From an uncultured Mageeibacillus sp. (GTDB taxonomy: Bacteria; Bacillota; Clostridia; Saccharofermentanales; DTU023): a stretch of 46,397 bases of DNA. The stretch lies in contig CAYFSZ010000002.1 in NCBI GenBank assembly GCA_964346085.1, positions 1-46,397 of the forward strand. Direction: 5' to 3'. A program made the position numbers and the translations under genes. Under the pieces are notes generated by a model. That model had not been told where the DNA came from and ran no database searches. It worked only from the letters and a program-made list of their open reading frames with translations. This document shows positions 15,541 through 46,337 of the stretch, piece by piece (position 1 is the first letter of the stretch; every line of letters starts with the position of its first letter).

Positions 15541-15643
15541 AATTTATTTTTATTTAACCTCTATTTCAGAAATTCAATATTTATTTATCAGTGTACTAGT
15601 ATACATCAAAAATAAAAATAATATTATTAACTTAATAAAAACT

Positions 15644-16654
15644 TTACTCATTGTCCTTTTGTTCTATATATCGATAACTGTTTCCTATCGTTTCTAATTG
15701 TAAAATCACATTATTATTCTTTGCTATATTTTTCACATTGTCCAAAATTATCTTATTTTTTTCATTGATACCATTCTTAGGAACTACTATTATTAACCGT
15801 CGACTTATGATATCTTCTTCTGAAATCACTGACGGATTAATATTCGTCGGCTTATTACCACCTCGAAAATTAGATAAATCAGTCATTTCTTTCTCAAACT
15901 GTCTTTGCAGTATTTCATTATTCTGATATTGAGGAGCTGTTAAGTCTATACTCCTTATTCCAATCGCCTGGCCATTCTTAAAACCAGAAATCACAGGATA
16001 ATTAAACGGCAAATTTGCATCAAATTTTTCTCTAAAATACTTCCCTCGAACAAAATTATGCTCTTCCCAAATCCCATCTGCTTCTTTTCCATCAGAGACC
16101 GATTCGTCTTTAACTGGTATAAAGTCCGAATCATATTTTGTCCAAAGAGGAATATAACTATAAATAACTCTTTCCTTCTCTGTCCAAGGCGTTTTAATAT
16201 GATAATCCATCTTTAGTCTTAAGGCATAATCACCACTTGTTGAAATTGAAATCTTTCGTTGATCAGAAGGAATCTTAACCTTTAATTGATTTGCTCCGAT
16301 AATTAGCCATTTTTCAACTTTATTCTGAATAAAATCTTGTAAAAGAACAGAACTAGAAATATTCAGCAAATCTTCTTGCAAGGATTTAGGAACCTCTTCA
16401 AGTATTGGTATATTCTCATCAACAAATCCACTTAGATGATCTTGATATAGTGCTTCTGCAAATGGAAATAAAACTGATAGCTCCTTAGCAGTATTATCTA
16501 ATGCATATCTCATGATGACTTCATGCTGAACCGTTAAACTCGCACTTAACATAAAATAACAAATTACCATAATTACAGGAACAATCAAGGCTGCTTCTAA
16601 AACAATGCTCCCGTGTTCAGCATTTGCCTTAACTTTAATGATTCTCATCAACAT
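15644..16654 (-). CDS. hypothetical exported/membrane protein: TadE-like class III signal N-terminus plus a C-terminal PD-(D/E)xK-toxin-like domain
   Basis: 336 aa. N-terminus KANAEHG|SIVLEAALIVPVIMV (Gly, then Glu at +5, then a hydrophobic helix). C-terminal pattern RGKYFREKF..NLPFNYPVISGF.NGQAIGIRSIDL...Y....RRLIIVVP.....ILDNVKNIAKNNNVILQLETI. Starts 18 nt after the upstream stop. Confidence 0.55.
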   Translation of the reverse strand: MLMRIIKVKANAEHGSIVLEAALIVPVIMVICYFMLSASLTVQHEVIMRYALDNTAKELSVLFPFAEALYQDHLSGFVDENIPILEEVPKSLQEDLLNISSSVLLQDFIQNKVEKWLIIGANQLKVKIPSDQRKISISTSGDYALRLKMDYHIKTPWTEKERVIYSYIPLWTKYDSDFIPVKDESVSDGKEADGIWEEHNFVRGKYFREKFDANLPFNYPVISGFKNGQAIGIRSIDLTAPQYQNNEILQRQFEKEMTDLSNFRGGNKPTNINPSVISEEDIISRRLIIVVPKNGINEKNKIILDNVKNIAKNNNVILQLETIGNSYRYIEQKDNE

Positions 16655-16672: not shown

Positions 16673-18094
16673 TTAATTTTTGCTTATGATATTATCAGAA
16701 AACTCTCTCTGTAAATGAAATGTTTTGTTCTCAAAAGTCGCGTCTAATTGAAAAGCAACAGCAAATTGGCCTGGTATTAATTTACTTCTAATAGTTGTCA
16801 TCCCGCTGAGAAGATTACTTTCGGATTGAAAAAAACTAAGTGCATATAATAAGTCATAATAATTTAGGTTTATAGAAATATTTCCTATCTCGAAAGAAAT
16901 ACTTTTTCCGTCTAATAATGCATTGATATCTTTATTTGTTTCAATTCCCGCATCAATTAAAATTAGAATCATTTTAATTATCGTTGGCGGAATTATCACC
17001 GTCCCCAAACTTACTGTCGCGATTGTTGTACTAATTGAAGTTGCACTTGAAGTGTATGCTGCTTGATGAACTGAATCAGTCATTCGATGAACCAAATGAT
17101 AACAATACCGTAATGCGCTCATCGTTCCTTTCGCAGATTGTAAACCTTTTTCTGGAGATTCTTTACGAAAAATAATTTGTTCTATTTCATTTTTTCTGCC
17201 CGAATTAATCAACTCCGAACAGTGACGTCCATCGGGTGTAGTTAATACCATCATCTCACCGTTTTTTTCGATAGAAGAACATTCAAGTGTATAATAACGA
17301 AAAAGATATTCTGATACCTGAATACGATCTATTAACGGAATCTGATAATTGCCGAGCATAATATCAAATGAAGAAAAAATATTTTGAACTGAATTCGTTG
17401 CTAATGGTTGATCAGCTCCCACCGAACCAGTTGATTCATAGATAGGAATGATTGAATCGGCGGCATCTTCAAGTAAATCTTCAACGATTGCAAACCCAGC
17501 ATCCTGTAATTCCTTTATTTCTGTTTCTGATATCTCTTCTTCTGAACCGCTTTCTTCTTCAGGAGGTTCTGATTGTTCAATCTCATGAATATATTCATCT
17601 TTATTCTCCAAAATGGTCTCAAGATTGTCATTATCAAAATTTAGTTTTTCTTTCATACTGCTAATATTTTCGATGATTTGTGAATAAGCTTCCGTATTTC
17701 TTAAGTGATTATCCATTATCAAGATGGGTGCACGAATGCTCATATGTCTGGTAATTTGCTTCTTCAATTCTTCGTTATCATTTAAGTATCTATCAGCCTT
17801 TATGGTTGATTCTGTATATTTTTCATCACTCAAATAAAGTGCATTCAATTCATCAGACATTGAATTGACTTTTTCTGTATCCGTCCCCCATAACCCAAAA
17901 TCATGCCAAAGTTGCCGATTATAAGAAGCTAGCGTTAAATCCAATTCATTTTCACATTTTCTGATAAAATCAAGCTCAAGTTTATTTGTTTGTGTATCTG
18001 AAAATAATATAAAAAGCAACAACACTGTCACCGGAAATAAGAGTGAAAAAAACAGACTGATATTCCCTTTTTCATCTATTAATTTTTGTTTCAT
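16673..18094 (-). CDS. hypothetical membrane-anchored protein, TadG/DUF5702-like N-terminus
   Basis: 473 aa. N-terminus EKGNISLFFSLLFPVTVLLLFILF followed by LASYNRQLWHDFGLWG. Acidic linker EQSEPPEEESGSEEEISETE. Second hydrophobic segment near the C-terminus (TVIIPPTIIKMILILIDAGI). TAATG stop/start overlap with the upstream gene, with GGAGGA as SD. Confidence 0.55.
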   Translation of the reverse strand: MKQKLIDEKGNISLFFSLLFPVTVLLLFILFSDTQTNKLELDFIRKCENELDLTLASYNRQLWHDFGLWGTDTEKVNSMSDELNALYLSDEKYTESTIKADRYLNDNEELKKQITRHMSIRAPILIMDNHLRNTEAYSQIIENISSMKEKLNFDNDNLETILENKDEYIHEIEQSEPPEEESGSEEEISETEIKELQDAGFAIVEDLLEDAADSIIPIYESTGSVGADQPLATNSVQNIFSSFDIMLGNYQIPLIDRIQVSEYLFRYYTLECSSIEKNGEMMVLTTPDGRHCSELINSGRKNEIEQIIFRKESPEKGLQSAKGTMSALRYCYHLVHRMTDSVHQAAYTSSATSISTTIATVSLGTVIIPPTIIKMILILIDAGIETNKDINALLDGKSISFEIGNISINLNYYDLLYALSFFQSESNLLSGMTTIRSKLIPGQFAVAFQLDATFENKTFHLQREFSDNIISKN

Positions 18095-18366
18095 TATTCC
18101 TCCGATTTGTCCGATACAATTTGTCCAATATCCGTGAATAAAGAGATAATTTCTTGCACTTTCTGTGGATTCGTTTCTAATTTGGTCATTTCATTGTTCT
18201 CAAATGTTTTAAGCAGATGTGCATTTTTCACTAAATCCAACCTATTTTCTGCAATTTGTTTCGTTTGATTTTCAATTCTTATTTGAATTGGATGAACATA
18301 CATAATACCTTGTATAAAAATAACCATAGATAAAGGAACGGCTAACATAGCTTCGATTGATAACAT
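18094..18366 (-). CDS. small TadE-like pseudopilin-like protein
   Basis: Start placed at the ATG at 18366 (MLSIEAMLAVPLSMVIFIQG...), with AGGAGG 7 nt upstream. The longest ORF extends to 18393. Glu at position 5 followed by a hydrophobic helix. Confidence 0.5.
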   Translation of the reverse strand: MLSIEAMLAVPLSMVIFIQGIMYVHPIQIRIENQTKQIAENRLDLVKNAHLLKTFENNEMTKLETNPQKVQEIISLFTDIGQIVSDKSEE

Positions 18367-18449
18367 AAAAAAACCTCCTATCTGCATATACATATTTTAA
18401 ATATCTGCATTGAGGAAATTCGAATTCTTTTTTGGAAAAATGGGAATTT

Positions 18450-18487
18450 TAAGAAAACCCCTTACCAAGTCTAGGTAAAGGGTTTTA
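18450..18487 (-). terminator. rho-independent terminator downstream of pheT
   Basis: 13-bp stem (18454-18466 / 18474-18486) with a 7-nt loop. The single imperfect pair is G-U on the minus-strand RNA but C-A on the plus strand, so the hairpin favours the minus transcript. U-rich 3' side. Confidence 0.7.
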
Positions 18488-20976: not shown

Positions 20977-22020
20977 CTACTTAAATTGTTCTAAGAAACG
21001 TAAATCATTTTCATAAAATGAACGAATGTCTTTGATATCATATTTTGCCATTGTGACACGTTCCATGCCGATACCAAAAGCAAAACCTGAGTACTTCTTA
21101 GAATCAATTCCACAATTATCCAAAATTTCCGGATGAACCATACCAGCACCAAGGATTTCGATGTATCCTTCTCCACGGCAAGTTTTACAATTCGGATCAT
21201 GTCCACCACAAGTCCAACATGAAATATCTACTTCACAACTTGGTTCAGTAAATGGAAAATGATGTGGACGCAAACGAATTTTAGTCTCTTCGCCAAATAA
21301 TTTACGAGCAAACAGTTCTAATGTCGCAACCAAATCGGACATTTGTAAATTTTCATCAATCGCTAATCCCTCGATTTGATGAAATACTGGTGAATGCGTC
21401 GCATCAACTGCATCTGAACGATAAACTCTACCGGGACAAACGATATAGATTGGAGGTTTTTGATTTTCCATCACCCTGATTTGAACAGGTGATGTTTGAG
21501 ATCTCAATAATAAGCCTTTTTCATAATCAAGATAGAATGTATCTTGTTCATCCCTGGCTGGATGACCTTTCGGCAAACGCAACATTTCAAAATTATAATA
21601 ATCAAGTTCTACTTCGGGTCCTTCTGCAATTGAATAACCTAAGCCGATAAATATATCAGAAATTTCTTTTGACATTAAAGCCAAAGGATGTCTTGAACCT
21701 AGTTGATTCGTTTTTCCAGGTAAACTAATATCAATTGTTTCACTGGCAATTTTTGCAGCTTCCTCAGCTTCCAAAATCTGTGTTTTTTTCTCATTAATTT
21801 TTTGTTCAATTAATTGTCTAACACGATTCGCCTCTTGACCAAGAATCGGGCGTTCTTCATTTGATAAGCCACCCATACTTTTCATAATGGCAGTTATTTC
21901 GCCTTTTTTACCTAGCAATTTAACTTTCAATTGATCTAACTCAGCTTGATCATTGATTGATTCTAAAGTCGAAATAAATGTATTCTCTATTGCTTGCAGA
22001 TCAGATAATAACTTTTCCAT
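20977..22020 (-). CDS. pheS: phenylalanine--tRNA ligase alpha subunit
   Basis: Class II motifs (HPARDEQDTFY, FPFTEPS, GFAFGIGMER). Start placed at MEKLLSDLQ (ATG at 22020), with GGAGGG just upstream. The 23 extra residues of the longest ORF do not look like PheS. Confidence 0.95.
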   Translation of the reverse strand: MEKLLSDLQAIENTFISTLESINDQAELDQLKVKLLGKKGEITAIMKSMGGLSNEERPILGQEANRVRQLIEQKINEKKTQILEAEEAAKIASETIDISLPGKTNQLGSRHPLALMSKEISDIFIGLGYSIAEGPEVELDYYNFEMLRLPKGHPARDEQDTFYLDYEKGLLLRSQTSPVQIRVMENQKPPIYIVCPGRVYRSDAVDATHSPVFHQIEGLAIDENLQMSDLVATLELFARKLFGEETKIRLRPHHFPFTEPSCEVDISCWTCGGHDPNCKTCRGEGYIEILGAGMVHPEILDNCGIDSKKYSGFAFGIGMERVTMAKYDIKDIRSFYENDLRFLEQFK

Positions 22021-22051
22021 AAGCCCTCCACATTTGATAATTAACTTTATT

Positions 22052-22060
22052 ATCATACCA
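22052..22060 (-). promoter_or_regulatory. extended -10 promoter element for pheST
   Basis: The minus strand reads TGgTATGAT about 30 nt upstream of the pheS start. No good -35 element. Confidence 0.35.
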
Positions 22061-22063
22061 CAA

Positions 22064-22116
22064 TATAAGAAAAACCGAACATTTTTCACTATCAGATTAA
22101 CGAAAAAATCGGTTTT
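22064..22116 (-). terminator. AU-rich imperfect hairpin plus U-tract between the MBL-hydrolase gene and pheS (weak terminator/attenuator)
   Basis: Minus strand AAAACCGA...TCGGTTTTTCTTATATT. The inner U5/A5 extension has a 3-nt bulge, and only 3 pairs are G-C. Confidence 0.35.
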
Positions 22117-27716: not shown

Positions 27717-29111
27717 TTAATACTCTGCATGTCCTACCGTTCTAGAAAATGGTAGAACGTCTCTAATGTTATTAACACCAGTCAAATACATAATCATGCG
27801 TTCAAAACCTAAGCCAAATCCTGCATGGCGAATTGATCCGTATTTTCTTAGCTCTAAATACCAATTATAGTCTTCAACTTCCAGTCCTAATTCATTGATT
27901 CTACGAGTCAATAGTTCAAGACTTTCTTCCCTTTGGCTACCACCTATAATTTCACCGACTCCCGGAACAAGACAGTCCATTGCTGCAACTGTTTTACCGT
28001 CTTCATTCAATTTCATATAAAAAGCTTTAATATCTTTTGGATAATCAGTTACGAAAACAGGGCCTTTGCACACTTTTTCTGTTAGGTAGCGTTCATGTTC
28101 AGTTTGTAAATCAGTTCCCCATGAAACTGGATACTCAAATTTTTGATCAGCTTTCAAGAGCTCTTCAATAGCTTCCGTATAAGTCATATAAGCAAATTTA
28201 CTATTCAAAACAAGCTCTAAGCGATTGAGTAATGTTTTGTCAACAAATTGATTGAAAAATTCCATTTCCTCAGGGCATTTTTCAAGAACATGGCGAATAA
28301 TTGCCTTAATCATATTTTCAGCCAAATTCGCACAATCTTTAAGATCTGCAAATGCAATTTCCGGCTCAATCATCCAGAATTCTGCTGCATGTCTAGCAGT
28401 ATTCGATTTTTCAGCACGGAAAGTCGGCCCGAATGTATAGATATTTCGGAAAGCCATCGCATATGCTTCACCAGCTAATTGTCCACTAACAGTCAAATGT
28501 GTTTTTCCACCAAAGAAATCTTGTTTATAATCAATATTCCCCTCTTCATCCAATGGAGGATTTGCCGGATCTATTGTCGTTACTTGGAACATTTCTCCTG
28601 CACCTTCCGCATCGCTAGATGTGATAATCGGCGTATTTACATAGACGAAATCTTGTTCGTTAAAAAATTTATGAATAGCAAAGGCAGCTTCTGAGCGCAC
28701 TCTAAAAACAGCAGAGAAAAGATTTGTTCTCGGTCTTAAATGTGAAATTGTTCTTAAAAATTCTGGCGAATGACGTTTTGGTTGTAAAGGATAATCTTCT
28801 GGAGAATTTCCTTCCACAATGATTGATTTTGCTTTCATTTCAAACGGTTGTTTCGCTTCAGGAGTTAACACAATTGTTCCGCTAATCGTTAACGAAGCAC
28901 CATTACCTGTTCTTGCAATTTCATCATAATTATCGATATGCTCTCTTTCAAAGACAACTTGAATCGGTTTAAAAAAAGTCCCATCGTTCAATGTGATAAA
29001 GCCAAATTGTTTTTGATCACGAATCGTACGTATCCAACCACCTATGGTAACTTCTTGACCAGCGTATTTATCTATATCCCGAAAAATTTCTCGAATTAAC
29101 GTATATTCCAT
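27717..29111 (-). CDS. asnS: asparagine--tRNA ligase
   Basis: 464 aa. N-terminal OB fold, class IIb motifs [18 protein letters not shown] and GFGLGFERM. Confidence 0.95.
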
Positions 29112-29160: not shown

Positions 29161-29664
29161 TTATTTGCCACAGCACTTTTTATATTTTTTCCCACTACCA
29201 CATGGGCATGGATCATTTCGTCCAATTTTTTCTGATCTAACAATTTTGGACTGTCTCCATTCATAAACCATTTCTTGTTGTTTTTCTGGCTTTATAATTT
29301 CATCCCATGAATCAATTGTGTATAACCAATCTGCTTTTGCTTCATGCATCGCGATAAACAATTTTTCATAATCTATATCTAATTTTAATTCAGATTCATC
29401 ATTTAATTCTTCTAAATTTAATTCTTCTTTCAAACTTCCGTTCAAACCTTCAAGGAAACCAACAAAAATAACCGGCTTATTCTTGAACCCTAATAGTTCT
29501 TGGACTTCTGTGAATTTACCTGAAATTGTTTCCTTATGATTTTCCAAAATTTTCTCATAAGCAGCTGTCTCTAATTGATAATATAATTCTATTTCAGACA
29601 TATTCTTTTGTTGACTTTGTTGATCTTGGAACATTTCGCTCCATTGTTTAAGATATGAACTCAT
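29161..29664 (-). CDS. SEC-C metal-binding motif protein of unknown function
   Basis: 167 aa. C-terminal [18 protein letters not shown]. The N-terminal domain is not recognised. Confidence 0.75.
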
Positions 29665-33914: not shown

Positions 33915-35171
33915 ATGGAAAAACCAAATCAGGATTCTCCAATATCTTCTCAAGCGGAGATGTTGGTACTAAGAAATTATGAAGAAAGAATTTTGAAACC
34001 CATTGCGCCAATTGCAATCATTAGTGCCCAGATGGATTCCGCTTTTTCTGATGCTGTCAATTTCCACTTAAGAAATCGCAGATCAAAAACGATTGAGGAA
34101 TTTCCTGAGCAAAAGGACTTTCCAGGCTATTATCGAGCAGATTATCGTATCGATGTTAACTTAGACCGCTATTCATCAGGTGAAGGACATGCGCGCTTAC
34201 TAGATTCAGTAAGAGGTCATGACCTTTTTATTTTGACTGATGTTTTGAATTATGGTCAATTTTATCAACGATTTAATCAAACAGTCTCGATTAGTCCAGA
34301 TGAACATTTTGAAGATTTATGCCGAATCATTGCAGCTGCTCATGGTGTCGCAAAACGAATCAATGTGATTATGCCTTATTTGTATGAAGGTAGACGTTAT
34401 CGCAGAGCTTATCGAGAATCTTTAGATTGTGCAGTTATGCTGAAACGTTTATTTGAACTCGGAATTGATAATTTCATGACCTTTGATGCACATGATGATC
34501 GAATCGCAAATGCAGTACCGAGAAGAAATTTCGAATCCGTTCAAACTTCTTTACAACTTATTGAGGCATTATTAGAAGATTATGATGATTTAAAAATTGA
34601 TAAAGATAATTTTATGATTGTCAGTGCGGATGAAGCTTCTATCAAACGCTGCATCTATTATGCTTCTCTCATGAAAGTTCCTCTTGGAATTTTCTATCGT
34701 CGATATGATCCTCGTCTACTCGATGAAGGTGAATACACGGCTCAATATTTAAAAACAAATGCCACCAAATTATTCCTTGGTGAAAACATCGAAGGCAAAG
34801 ATATTTTGATTGTTGACGATATGATTGACACTGGTAAAACAGTTCTCGAAGGAGCAGCAATGCTTAAAGCTCAAGGAGCGAAAAGAGTTTTTGTTGCAGT
34901 TTCTTTTGCACAATTCTCAAAAGGATTTGAAAAGTTTAATCAAGCCTATGAAATGGGAACTATCACCAAAGTATTCGCAACGAATTTAGCTTATCGCTCA
35001 CCTGTTTTACTTAATACAAAGTGGTATCGCGATGTTAATTTATCTAAATACTTAGCATTATTGATTGATGGCTATAATCATAATGCTGCATTGACTAATA
35101 TTATTAGCCCAACAACTCGAATCGAAGAATTACTAGACGCATATAAAGGAGATATTCATGGTAAAGAATAA
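33915..35171 (+). CDS. ribose-phosphate pyrophosphokinase family protein, long form, divergent paralog 1
   Basis: 418 aa. Prs N-domain and PRTase domain (INVIMPYLYEGRRYRR, FDAHD, ILIVDDMIDTGKT), with insertions and a C-terminal extension. Confidence 0.8.
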   Translation: MEKPNQDSPISSQAEMLVLRNYEERILKPIAPIAIISAQMDSAFSDAVNFHLRNRRSKTIEEFPEQKDFPGYYRADYRIDVNLDRYSSGEGHARLLDSVRGHDLFILTDVLNYGQFYQRFNQTVSISPDEHFEDLCRIIAAAHGVAKRINVIMPYLYEGRRYRRAYRESLDCAVMLKRLFELGIDNFMTFDAHDDRIANAVPRRNFESVQTSLQLIEALLEDYDDLKIDKDNFMIVSADEASIKRCIYYASLMKVPLGIFYRRYDPRLLDEGEYTAQYLKTNATKLFLGENIEGKDILIVDDMIDTGKTVLEGAAMLKAQGAKRVFVAVSFAQFSKGFEKFNQAYEMGTITKVFATNLAYRSPVLLNTKWYRDVNLSKYLALLIDGYNHNAALTNIISPTTRIEELLDAYKGDIHGKE

Positions 35172-36375
35172 TCACACATTCAATCCGGAAGATAAAGATT
35201 ATTATCGCTACGATCAATATGGTGATAATCCAATGCCGGCAGATGCCCCTGTTGGCATCATCTCATTAATTGGAGCAAAAGATTTCGGAGCGAAAGTGAA
35301 TCAACATTTGATTGATCGACGCAAAGAATATCTTGAAACTTCTATTGAAACAATTAATACCCCAGGTTTTTTAAGAGACGATTATGAAATTAAAGCTGAT
35401 GCAGTCCGTTTTTCCACTGGCGAAGGAAAAGGTGTTTTAAATCAAACAGTTCGTGGACATGATTTATATATAATTTGCGATGTAACAAATTATAGTTGCA
35501 CTTATAAAATGCGCGGATTAACAAATCATTTTAGTCCAGATGATCATTATCAAGACTTAAAGAGAATTATTTTAGCTGCTTCAGGACAAGCTAGAAGAAT
35601 CAATGTCATCATGCCTTTCCTATATGAAAGCCGTCAGCATCGTCGAACTGGTAGAGAATCTTTGGATTGTGCATATATGCTTGAGGATATTTTTGATTTA
35701 GGTATTAGTAACTTCATCACCTTTGATGCGCATGATGATCGTGTCGCCAATGCTGTCCCAACCTCAAGTTTTGAATCAATTCCTTCTACTTATCAGATTT
35801 TAAAAGCGTTAATTCGTTCTATTCCGGATATCAAAATCAATGCTGATTCACTAATGATTGTCAGTCCTGACGAAGGAGCAATTGGAAGATCGATGTATTA
35901 TGCTTCCATGCTAAATGTTCCACTCGGCACATTCTATAAACGCAGGGATTATTCTCAAGTCATTGACGGTAGAAATCCAATTATTGCTCATGAATTCTTA
36001 GGTGACTCTGTTGAAGGTTATGATGTTGTCATCGTTGATGATATGCTTTCTTCCGGAGAATCGATGCTTGATTTAGCCAAATCATTGAAACAAAAAGGTG
36101 CAAATCGTATTATCTGTGCAACAACATTTGGCCTTTTCACAAACGGAATTCAAGAGTTCGACAATTACTATGAAAAAGGATTAATCGATCGAGTGATTGC
36201 TACTAACCTGACATATTTACCAGATGAAGTAAAAAATGCACCTTGGTTTGTTGAGGCTGATATGACCAAATTCGTTGCTTTACTGATAGATGCAATGAAT
36301 CATAATGCTTCTATGGGTAGCTTAATTACACCAACCAATAAGATTAGCAAATTGTTAAATAAACTAAACAAATAA
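35158..36375 (+). CDS. ribose-phosphate pyrophosphokinase family protein, long form, paralog 2
   Basis: 405 aa. RFSTGEG, INVIMPFLYESRQHRR, FDAHD, SPDEGA, YKRRD, VVIVDDMLSSGES. Overlaps paralog 1 by 14 nt. Confidence 0.8.
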   Translation: MVKNNHTFNPEDKDYYRYDQYGDNPMPADAPVGIISLIGAKDFGAKVNQHLIDRRKEYLETSIETINTPGFLRDDYEIKADAVRFSTGEGKGVLNQTVRGHDLYIICDVTNYSCTYKMRGLTNHFSPDDHYQDLKRIILAASGQARRINVIMPFLYESRQHRRTGRESLDCAYMLEDIFDLGISNFITFDAHDDRVANAVPTSSFESIPSTYQILKALIRSIPDIKINADSLMIVSPDEGAIGRSMYYASMLNVPLGTFYKRRDYSQVIDGRNPIIAHEFLGDSVEGYDVVIVDDMLSSGESMLDLAKSLKQKGANRIICATTFGLFTNGIQEFDNYYEKGLIDRVIATNLTYLPDEVKNAPWFVEADMTKFVALLIDAMNHNASMGSLITPTNKISKLLNKLNK

Positions 36376-44145: not shown

Positions 44146-45198
44146 ATGAAAAAAGAAACCTCAATTTTCACGAATGTACTCGCTTTTATTATCACCTTAA
44201 TATTAGCATTAATTCTGCTGTTCGTTATTTTAGGTAATCCATTCTCTGCAAAAAAAAATAATTTCGAAATGTCTTCAGTTACACAAAAAGTATCAAATCT
44301 AGCTGAGTCCAGTTCACAGACAAAAATTGGGCAATCCACATCATCAATCGTAACATCGATGCCAGAAACTGAATCATATCAGGCAAAGTCCTTCTCGACA
44401 ACTCACACTGAGGAAGAAGAAAAAGGAGTTTCCATAGAGCGACTAAATCAGATGGTTACAAATGTCATTGAACCTACTTATGAGAATTTTAATGGAACGG
44501 TTCAAATAGCATTCAAAGAGTTAAATCATGACTTTATGTACTCAAATTATGATGAGAATGTATTTTTATATCCCGCAAGCCTTCCAAAGTTATTTATGAT
44601 GTCCTACATCTATCACTTAGAAGATAAAGGTGTGTTAGAAATCACTGATGAAGTTTTTACTTTGATTGATGGCATGATTGTTTATAGTTATAACCATTCT
44701 TATAATGAGCTTTTGATAATAGCAGCGAATGCTTTGAATGGGAAAAACCCATTTACAGAACTAGACACATTTTTAGATAAATATGGATTTAATGATACAA
44801 TTCTTCACTCCTATTATTCCATTTCAGGTCAATATGAAGTTTTGTTAGCTCCATTCTTAAGTGACTTTACATTTCAGACAACCGTTGATGATATCGCATT
44901 ATTCTACGAACTATTATACAAAGAAAATTTAGTTAGTGCAGAGTCCTCAAAAGCAATGCTTGAAATTCTTGAAAAACAAAGTAGAACTTCAAAAATCCCT
45001 GCTCTATTGCCCGAGCATGTCATTTTTTATAATAAAACAGGAGAACTTGATTATTTTACACATGATAGCGCACTCATTCTTTCTCCTAATGCTGATTATA
45101 TTTTGGTAATCATGACCGCTGCAGAATATGATGCTTATCAAAACGAGTTGGCAATTCAAGAAATTTCCTATAACATATATAACTTTCTCAATCCTTGA
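44146..45198 (+). CDS. membrane-anchored class A beta-lactamase-like serine hydrolase
   Basis: 350 aa. N-terminal TM anchor, Ser/Thr/Glu-rich linker, SxxK = SLPK, SYN in place of SDN, KTG = NKTGE. Confidence 0.7.
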   Translation: MKKETSIFTNVLAFIITLILALILLFVILGNPFSAKKNNFEMSSVTQKVSNLAESSSQTKIGQSTSSIVTSMPETESYQAKSFSTTHTEEEEKGVSIERLNQMVTNVIEPTYENFNGTVQIAFKELNHDFMYSNYDENVFLYPASLPKLFMMSYIYHLEDKGVLEITDEVFTLIDGMIVYSYNHSYNELLIIAANALNGKNPFTELDTFLDKYGFNDTILHSYYSISGQYEVLLAPFLSDFTFQTTVDDIALFYELLYKENLVSAESSKAMLEILEKQSRTSKIPALLPEHVIFYNKTGELDYFTHDSALILSPNADYILVIMTAAEYDAYQNELAIQEISYNIYNFLNP

Positions 45199-45212
45199 TT
45201 GGAGTTTTTTTA

Positions 45213-46337
45213 ATGAATCAAGCATCTTTTTATAAAAAAATATTACTTTGTTTTTTAATTTGCAGTCAATTATTTTTAGTATCATGTCAATCCAGAAAAT
45301 CAACGATCGACTTTTCCAAACAAAACCGAGAAAAGCCAATCGAAACGACTGAAAAAACAGAAAATACCTCCGAAACTTTTCAAGAACCAGAACAGACAAA
45401 CACTTCTGTATACACACTTCCTGCTCGGTCAGATCAAATCGAAGTAACTGTTTCTGAAACATCGATATTGGAAAGCGAGCAATTGAAAAACACTAAAATT
45501 TCAAAAACAGAGTTGCCAGAAAACACCGAAATAAAAGAAACAGAAATTTTGGAATCAGAGAGTTCATCAAGTGATCAAACGAATGTTCAAGCACCTGTAT
45601 CTGATTCTATTAAAAATATTATCGATACTTATATTGCCGAATATCCTGGAATCATGTACGTTTCATTCAAAAATTTGACTTCTGGTCAGGAGTATATTTA
45701 TTCAGAAGAAGCTGTTTATGCTGCTAGCCTATCTAAATTATTTATGATGGGAACAGTTTACGATGCAATTGAAAACGGAATCATCGAATATTCCCCTGCA
45801 GTTGAACAGTACTTGGAAATCATGATAACCATCAGCGACAATAATGCATATAATCAATTTGTCTTCATGCTACAGGAAGCAATTCCTGATCGAAATGTCT
45901 TTTTGCTTTTAGATGAATTTTGCGCAAAATACGGTTTCTCCGACACGATAATTCATAATCTATTGCAATTGCCTGGTGATAGCTATTATCGATATCCAAC
46001 GGACCATGTTCTCGTTACAAGTGCGCGAGATGTCGGACGATTTTTAGATTTAGTATATCGAGGCGAAATGATCAACCCCGAAGTTTCGGAAGAAATGCTT
46101 GGTAGACTTAGAAGACAGCAACGTTTAGGTAAAATTCCAGCACTTCTTCCAGCTGATGCTGTAACCGCAAACAAAACCGGTGAAAGAGATTATTACAGCC
46201 ATGACTCAGCTATTATTGTCAGCCCAAAAGCAGATTATGTACTTGTCGTAATGACAGATGCAGCTCCTGCAGGGGTAATGGGAGATGGCTATATTCAGAG
46301 TTTGTCATTAGATATTTACAACGAATTAAATAAATGA
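45213..46337 (+). CDS. class A beta-lactamase-like serine hydrolase, predicted lipoprotein
   Basis: Start placed at the ATG at 45213 (GGAG 8 nt upstream); the longest ORF starts at a TTG at 45195. Signal peptide with lipobox LVSC. Long Glu/Thr/Ser-rich linker. SxxK = SLSK, SDN, KTG = NKTGE. Confidence 0.75.
   Translation: MNQASFYKKILLCFLICSQLFLVSCQSRKSTIDFSKQNREKPIETTEKTENTSETFQEPEQTNTSVYTLPARSDQIEVTVSETSILESEQLKNTKISKTELPENTEIKETEILESESSSSDQTNVQAPVSDSIKNIIDTYIAEYPGIMYVSFKNLTSGQEYIYSEEAVYAASLSKLFMMGTVYDAIENGIIEYSPAVEQYLEIMITISDNNAYNQFVFMLQEAIPDRNVFLLLDEFCAKYGFSDTIIHNLLQLPGDSYYRYPTDHVLVTSARDVGRFLDLVYRGEMINPEVSEEMLGRLRRQQRLGKIPALLPADAVTANKTGERDYYSHDSAIIVSPKADYVLVVMTDAAPAGVMGDGYIQSLSLDIYNELNK

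Follow-up and report, generated by a model that had tools for sequence, protein, structure and literature searches.

The window analysed here, which is the whole 46,397-nucleotide (46-kb) stretch of contig CAYFSZ010000002.1, comes from an uncultured Mageeibacillus sp. of the Clostridia. On its minus strand lies a cassette of three genes, flanked by pheST upstream and secA downstream. The third of these genes encodes a 336-amino-acid (aa) protein, referred to below as the target, which joins a TadE-like, pilin-like N-terminal part to a C-terminal domain homologous to nuclease toxins of contact-dependent growth inhibition (CDI). A sequence-only reading of this DNA, made by a model without database searches, had pointed to the C-terminal domain, and its coordinates and quoted peptide strings (residues 193-323) agree with the translation of the 336-aa open reading frame (ORF), in which residue 193 begins at 16078 and residue 323 finishes at 15686. 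The parts of the target gene are listed here with their basis in brackets; AF2 stands for AlphaFold2, pLDDT for its predicted local distance difference test score, and a slash within a sequence marks a prepilin-peptidase cleavage site.

15644..16654, minus strand: target gene, cassette gene 3, encoding the 336-aa TadE-like modular pseudopilin (ORF, homologues)
16610..16654, minus strand: leader peptide, residues 1-15, MLMRIIKVKANAEHG, with the predicted prepilin-peptidase site G15/S16 and E20 at position +5 (sequence motif)
16145..16609, minus strand: pilin-like module, residues 16-170, beginning with the hydrophobic helix alpha1 and ending in an antiparallel sheet of three strands (134-169), with a helical region modelled at low confidence between them (AF2)
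16079..16144, minus strand: acidic linker, residues 171-192, poorly conserved (AF2 pLDDT, alignment columns)
15686..16078, minus strand: CdiA-CT EC869-like PD-(D/E)xK fold domain, residues 193-323, predicted to be catalytically degenerate (Pfam, profile, Foldseek)
15668..15685, minus strand: C-terminal tail motif G-N-S-Y-R-Y, residues 324-329 (conservation)

The target's C-terminal domain is a homologue of the PD-(D/E)xK DNase toxin domain of CdiA-CT EC869 and CdiA-CT YPIII. Pfam family PF21111 (CDI_toxin_EC869_like, described as 'CDI toxin restriction endonuclease-like domain'; gathering cutoff 27 bits) matches residues 215-317 with 28.2 bits (E-value 2.4e-6) in the whole protein and with 30.8 bits (E 4e-7) in the isolated domain. 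A sequence search of the Protein Data Bank (PDB) with the target as single sequence returned nothing relevant, and family profiles alone reached CdiA-CT. The profile from 15 homologous domains matches the Yersinia pseudotuberculosis CdiA-CT (4ZQU_A, E 2.7e-5), and the one from 144 full-length relatives matches both this chain (E 6.7e-12) and the EC869 CdiA-CT (4G6U_A, E 1e-11). The AF2 model of the target, built on 21 homologues, has a mean pLDDT of 75.8, with values of 77-94 for the blocks of the C-terminal domain. Foldseek aligns it to 4g6u_A (E 8.8e-6, root-mean-square deviation 2.3 Å across 144 columns) and to 4zqu_A (E 2.6e-5, TM-score 0.72 on the target), gives the CdiA-CT fold match a probability of 1.0 and finds no further PDB match with E<=1e-3. 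NCBIfam and PADLOC gave no match for the cassette proteins. What the sequence-only reading had described as a resemblance to restriction-endonuclease-fold toxin modules is real homology, as judged by PF21111, the family profiles and Foldseek on the AF2 model.

On either side of this domain the protein departs from the toxins. The linker is of low confidence in the model (pLDDT <50 at residues 183-188), and its columns differ in sequence and length between homologues. The G-N-S-Y-R-Y tail falls beyond the toxin homology in the profile alignment, the CdiA-CT chains stopping earlier. Among close homologues, G324, S326 and Y329 show either no variation or a conservation of at least 90%, and the consensus in the broader family is GxSxRY. 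The place of the tail is after the final strand of the nuclease fold, and it may serve as a docking motif.

Concerning catalysis, the active site of the EC869-type CdiA-CT, a Zn-dependent DNase, consists of E177, D198, S209 and K211 (PMC9086364). In the HMMER alignment, where the index of chain 4G6U_A is offset by 5 from the published active-site numbering, D198 aligns with S223 of the target (in P-V-I-S), S209 with G232 and K211 with R234 (in IRS). The Asp to Ser and Lys to Arg replacements named in the sequence-only reading are both borne out, and S209/G232 adds a third loss. E177 lies upstream of the aligned block; its candidate counterparts are V202, if there is no indel, or E209. Across 172 aligned domains of the family, Glu is found at position 202 in 37 and at position 209 in 79. 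The D198 position (223) is occupied by A (82), S (50), D (16), C (14) or N (8), the S209 position (232) by S (69), A (39), M (29) or L (16), and the K211 position (234) by K (88), R (46), H (10) or T (9). The complete E-D-S-K set occurs in none of the 172 sequences. Those which bear the Asp nearly always lack the Lys (EDSS, EDSV, DDSR, KDSL); the single exception seen with Asp and Lys is KDAK, without the Glu and the Ser.

A different set of residues is conserved instead. W196, N200, R203, G204, R208, N214, L215, P216 and P220, followed by S235, D237, T239, G265, I282, R/K285, P292 and N294, are invariant or nearly so, and the target carries every conserved family position of the domain. Some of these elements are common to the toxins (LP.NF, S.D.T, R/K285, P292); others are specific to the family, namely the helix motif D.IW...NF.RG..FR and the C-terminal G.S.RY tail. 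As read from these alignments, the domain family is catalytically degenerate, its predicted metal-binding and catalytic residues having been lost. Because another residue set (W196, R203, G204, D237, P292) is invariant, the pattern points to a nuclease fold that would be maintained under selection for a role other than metal-dependent phosphodiester cleavage.

The same positions bear on the alternative that the domain is a divergent but active extracellular nuclease with a relocated site (for example D237, E209 or N294) that still cuts DNA or RNA and would serve as a surface-bound DNase for nutrient scavenging or DNA processing. Migration of catalytic residues is known in PD-(D/E)xK enzymes. 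The CdiA-CT relative E479 has a His in place of the catalytic Lys (PMC9086364), D237 is invariant in the family, and S235, T239 and R/K285 are also common to the active toxins. However, the target has Ser for the metal-binding Asp and G-I-R in place of the (S/D/E)xK motif. The catalytic positions drift through the family (A/S/C/N/D; S/A/M/L; K/R/H/T/V) and never form a complete set, which is unexpected under catalytic constraint, and both candidate counterparts of E177 are unconserved. D237 lies three residues past the Lys position, at the end of a strand, and from this register is more probably a structural cap. An active nuclease is, as far as these alignments allow, unlikely.

The carrier of the domain is of pilin type. 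The target begins with a short basic leader with Gly at -1, followed by Glu at +5 and a hydrophobic helix (MLMRIIKVKANAEHG/SIVLEAALIVPVIMV); the predicted cleavage context reads G/SIVLEAALIVP. Such an N-terminus has the features of a class III signal as in type IV pilins and TadE/F pseudopilins. Position -1, as counted from the conserved acidic residue, is taken by G in 108 and by A in 17 of the 144 full-length members, E20 is conserved in at least 90% of the family, and the TadE family PF07811 is found in 41 of the 144 at E<=0.01 (best E 2e-9), for instance with 23.3 bits in the relative L026. The pseudopilin-like anchor proposed in the sequence-only reading is supported by this conservation of the motif in 125 of 144 members and by the TadE matches. 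In the AF2 model, helices span residues 2-70 and 103-124 and strands 134-140, 144-154 and 159-169 (pLDDT 77-82). For the pilin-like part, Foldseek finds no significant neighbour in the PDB, solved pilins included, and the N-terminus of the 144-sequence profile weakly matches an archaeal flagellin (7txi_A, E 0.72). N-terminal toxin-delivery domains (CdiA, Rhs, LXG) are absent from the target, whose approximately 190 N-terminal residues are TadE-like and pilin-like.

Upstream of the target gene lie the two other genes of the cassette and the end of the preceding transcription unit.

16673..18094, minus strand: cassette gene 2, DUF5702 protein, 473 aa, with the TadG-like N-terminus KG/NISLFFSLLFPV (PF18960)
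18094..18366, minus strand: cassette gene 1, small TadE-like protein of about 90 aa, listed as 18094-18393 (revised start ATG at 18366)
18454..18486, minus strand: terminator hairpin directly after pheT (13-bp stem, -18 kcal/mol)

The cassette proteins of 90, 473 and 336 aa all have TadE/TadG-like N-termini. Genes 1 and 2 overlap by 1 nt, genes 2 and 3 are 18 nt apart, and the cassette genes are translationally coupled. The hairpin after pheT, which a simple terminator scan had missed, has a z-score of -4.35, and none of 200 shuffled sequences was equally stable. Because of this terminator and the tight gene spacing, the three genes form an operon of their own, separate from pheST. Between the target gene and secA there is a gap of 103 nt (15541-15643) with neither an ORF nor a terminator-like fold, and the operon possibly reads through into secA.

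The DUF5702 protein matches PF18960 with 32.3 bits (cutoff 26). Its AF2 model (pLDDT 78.9) has a long N-terminal helix, and neither its sequence nor its fold has a neighbour in the PDB. The start of gene 1 was revised to the ATG at 18366, which sits 7 nt after AGGAGG and gives a product beginning MLSIEAMLAVP, with Glu at position 5 and no leader. In most other loci the homologues of gene 1 start with MxxxE, with a bulky second residue and the Met kept, or with M(A/S/G)xxxE, where removal of the Met is expected and Glu thus comes to +5; an in-frame stop often lies just 2-8 codons upstream of the start. From these starts, the product of gene 1 is probably a leaderless pilin-like protein. Such a protein would not need prepilin peptidase, and the target and the DUF5702 protein keep their leaders.

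The cassette recurs as a unit. We compared 56 Clostridia loci, 53 from a scan of one genome per species in GTDB and three from contig look-ups; the scan used a single pattern from one alignment, and the sample is biased to closer relatives. A DUF5702 protein is encoded immediately upstream of the target homologue in 55 of the 56 loci, which makes it the target's obligate neighbour, and in most of them a small TadE-like gene precedes it. The hosts include Mageeibacillus, Fastidiosipila and Saccharofermentans as well as members of the Ruminococcaceae, Oscillospiraceae and Hungateiclostridiaceae. The flanking order in the loci is mreC-mreD-pbp2, an unannotated 129-aa ORF, a gene of the metallo-beta-lactamase fold, pheS-pheT, the cassette and secA, with a 77-aa ORF and a TrpR-like gene between cassette and secA in some. 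Recurrent neighbours, as found by clustering of the ORFs, are also PNP, a DUF4080 radical SAM protein, a DacA-like protein and FapA. An apparent 790-aa neighbour, a candidate ComEC, was identified as PBP2; there is therefore no positional link to competence genes, although comEC lies 14 kb off in the window.

A second clade of the cassette was also seen (loci L021, L022, L026, L027, L033, L034, L041-L043, L045 and L047). It has a TadE protein of about 240 aa with a normal G/S.T.E leader, a DUF5702 protein of about 760-940 aa and a target homologue of about 370-490 aa, and mostly adjoins genes for a D-Ala-D-Ala carboxypeptidase and a DUF4080 B12-binding radical SAM protein, not pheST/secA.

The family is large. 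A word-indexed search gave 21 full-length homologues with 30-53% identity, apart from one copy that is 99% identical, all annotated as hypothetical proteins and all from metagenome-assembled genomes (MAGs) of Clostridia. The number of clusters matched by the domain profile in an exhaustive HMMER search of 1.84 billion cluster representatives (50% identity) is at least 1,655 at E<=1e-3 and falls to 910 at the stricter E<=1e-10 and to 126 at E<=1e-30. Among the best 150 of these at least 1,655 clusters, nearly all are proteins of 300-410 aa with a TadE-like N-terminus and the domain at the C-terminus, and PF21111 is present in 131 of the 144 members scanned (best E 4.3e-16). The family is common in gut, rumen and digester Clostridia. 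The pilin-fused proteins look vertically inherited across several Clostridia families, in conserved housekeeping synteny.

In one Saccharofermentanales MAG (L057:3683-6429), the cassette is broken into six short ORFs, about four for the DUF5702 protein and two for the target, by either pseudogenisation or assembly frameshifts. P0022 (142 aa), the one short entry checked, stems from this splitting, which accounts for PF21111 proteins that seem to stand alone; the shorter entries appear to be pieces of fragmented cassettes.

Taken together, we consider it somewhat more probable than its negation that the target belongs, as a TadF-like minor pilin of modular build, to a tip-like complex of three proteins, and that its dead PD-(D/E)xK fold is on display there as a module for binding. 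Prepilin peptidase would cleave the target at G15/S16. The three N-terminal helices of the cassette proteins would bundle into a heterotrimer, by analogy with the 'Tip' trimers of TadE/F/G (KilL/M/N), and the trimer would cap a Tad-type filament or a short pseudopilus assembled by machinery encoded elsewhere. The dead nuclease fold, carried via the acidic linker, would then lie on the outside of the cell and act there in binding. Our inference covers the processing, the formation of the trimer, its location at the tip and the binding role. A more specific version is unlikely: a widespread core-genome pilus-tip or pseudopilus complex of Clostridia that would use an exapted toxin-type nuclease fold as a receptor and be primed by the leaderless pilin, which would bypass the prepilin peptidase, with capture of extracellular DNA or another anionic polymer as one possibility.

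Several observations weigh against the tip-complex interpretation. The TadE profile PF07811 scores the target itself with 19.5 bits, under its cutoff of 22.9. Unlike accessory tip clusters of the typical kind, the cassette is embedded in housekeeping synteny that is deeply conserved. Pfam searches on essentially all ORFs of at least 90 aa found no ATPase, platform protein, prepilin peptidase or Flp of a Tad or type IV filament in the 46-kb window, and there is no Tad machinery among the recurrent clusters within 10 kb in the 56 loci, about ten clusters having been checked with Pfam. Since assembly genes are missing from the window and from the recurrent neighbours, a filament is unproven. As to binding, the family domains are acidic on average (median isoelectric point (pI) 5.5, median net charge -3), the target's own copy having a pI of 6.8. 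Non-specific DNA binding was considered and is weakened by this acidity, so that a non-specific DNA clamp is not the obvious reading. The conserved basic residues R203, R208, K/R234 and R/K285 hint at a possible specific anion site for a nucleic acid or a wall polymer.

The missing assembly genes and the core-genome context give rise to the main alternative explanation, in which the three proteins would form a fixed, membrane-anchored extracytoplasmic complex that never becomes a filament, with the TadE/TadG-like N-termini as mere signal anchors, the dead fold in a structural or protein-binding function and a core role in the envelope. The position of the cassette between mreC/mreD/pbp2, pheST and secA, or beside a D-Ala-D-Ala carboxypeptidase in the second clade, is consistent with it, as are the synteny pattern, which suggests a vertically inherited core function, and the independence of cassette protein 1 from prepilin peptidase. 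A simple anchor, however, would not require the G/A at -1 and E at +5 that are specific to class III signals and conserved in 125 of 144 members, and the TadE/TadG/TadF-like layout of the three genes matches that of tip triplets, which can lie apart from their machinery (PMC12075869). We regard such an anchored complex as possible, though not as the probable case.

With CDI toxins as the sole significant structural and sequence relatives, the target might also be an effector similar to polymorphic toxins, a toxic nuclease that a pilus or pseudopilus would deliver into neighbouring cells in the style of contact-dependent killing. Myxococcus does kill on contact by means of a Tad-like pilus whose tips are specialised (PMC12075869). 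Against this, the catalytic set is lost, and the target has no PADLOC match and no usual toxin-delivery N-terminal domain. Nor is the domain polymorphic, being one conserved family at one conserved chromosomal position. The lack of an immunity-like ORF, noted in the sequence-only reading together with the 103 nt to secA, extends to the other loci: apart from the TrpR-like regulator and the 77-aa ORF of one clade, no small downstream gene recurs in the 56 loci, and the gene after the target homologue is secA, the TrpR-like regulator or another housekeeping gene. To judge from these features, a toxin is very unlikely.

The sequence-only reading had left the choice between a toxin-derived domain repurposed for binding and a divergent active nuclease. 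With the E-D-S-K set in 0 of 172 domains, the non-catalytic option is clearly favoured, but 'toxin-derived' and 'binding' are still inferred parts of it. The pilin-fused family is large, stands in housekeeping synteny and looks vertically inherited; homology therefore does not fix the direction of descent. As for the statement that no such fusion had been described, our literature search brought up no publication that deals with DUF5702, with PF21111 in a setting other than CDI, or with Tad minor pilins that carry a nuclease-fold module. Public precomputed Pfam annotation, however, already tags these proteins with PF21111, so the domain call is not new and the interpretation is.

Some further observations concern the remainder of the window. 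At 29161-29664 on the minus strand, 14 kb from secA, lies a gene for a 167-aa protein with a terminal SEC-C motif (PF02810); it matches the SecA proteins of related loci by BLAST, which suggests a small paralogue of the C-terminus of SecA. Tandem paralogues similar to ribose-phosphate pyrophosphokinase (418 and 405 aa; 33915-36375, plus strand) and tandem paralogues of the Beta-lactamase2 family (350 and 380 aa; 44146-46337, plus strand) were found as well; in each protein the match falls within the C-terminal half. Scans of the window for tRNAs and, at gathering score, for Rfam families came back empty, and in particular neither pheS (20977-22089) nor the other aminoacyl-tRNA synthetase gene (27717-29111) has a detected T-box leader upstream.

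That the specific functions of Tad pili reside in their minor pilins and tip complexes is only now becoming recognised. The family described here, uncharacterised and comprising at least 1,655 clusters, contributes a member of a pilin-like set with a nuclease fold otherwise matched significantly only in contact-dependent toxins, and thereby a testable example of a toxin-shared fold as a display module. DUF5702 gains its first context from the cassette, which also raises the question which machinery, if any, assembles orphan cassettes. Were the receptor-module reading true, type IV filament tips would gain a new functional class, and a CDI-toxin fold would for the first time be seen in the service of a pilus, as adhesin or receptor.

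The principle that pilins and Tad tip complexes carry grafted modules is already published (PMC8179133, PMC12075869), and the target can be set beside four known systems. The closest by domain are the DNase toxin domains of contact-dependent growth inhibition CdiA-CT EC869 (o11, PDB 4G6U; listed as TA271, PMC9086364) and CdiA-CT YPIII (4ZQU). The target shares with them the motifs LP.NF, S.K-S.D.T, (R/K)..L..(I/V)P and G(V/I). It differs in having S223, G232 and R234 at the places of D198, S209 and K211, in its additional N-terminal helix motif and C-terminal tail, and in its fusion to a class III signal and pilin module in Clostridia instead of Proteobacteria; a CdiA/Rhs/LXG delivery region, an immunity gene and polymorphism are all lacking.

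In layout, the cassette resembles the Tad 'Tip' of Myxococcus xanthus, its nearest working analogy, where clusters of three genes encode a small KilM, an extended KilL and a very large KilN, the last with a domain without structural homologue, as the set homologous to TadE/TadF/TadG (PMC12075869). AlphaFold predicts a heterotrimer joined by three alpha1N helices. Some of the clusters stand apart from the kil machinery in the genome, and the variable domains of their products are exposed at the pilus end (PMC12075869). Our cassette likewise has adjacent genes for three pilin-like proteins, one small, one large and one extended, the large partner having a domain that lacks a structural homologue. 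The likeness is one of layout, and we claim no sequence relationship. Unlike in the Kil Tip, a recognisable extra module is found on the mid-sized, TadF/KilL-like protein and not just on the large one, the hosts are monoderm Clostridia, the context is housekeeping, no Tad machinery lies in the searched surroundings, and the first pilin is leaderless.

Modular type IV pilins are known from Streptococcus sanguinis, in which PilB bears a vWA module and PilC a lectin module (PMC8179133, PMC9934059); the survey of such proteins covered IPR012902-type pilins only, and nuclease modules are not mentioned in it (PMC8179133). Like PilB and PilC, the target has an N-terminal pilin module, a short linker and a grafted C-terminal module for display in a monoderm host. 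Their class III signal, however, is of the IPR012902 kind (T4aP/Com) and they are encoded with their machinery, whereas the target is of TadE type. In this respect it resembles TadE and TadF (PF07811) of the Aggregatibacter tad locus, with which it shares the G/xxxxE motif followed by a hydrophobic helix, its neighbouring genes having TadE-like and TadG-like N-termini as in that locus. Unlike Aggregatibacter TadE and TadF, the target lies outside a tad locus and carries about 145 extra residues, which form the nuclease fold.

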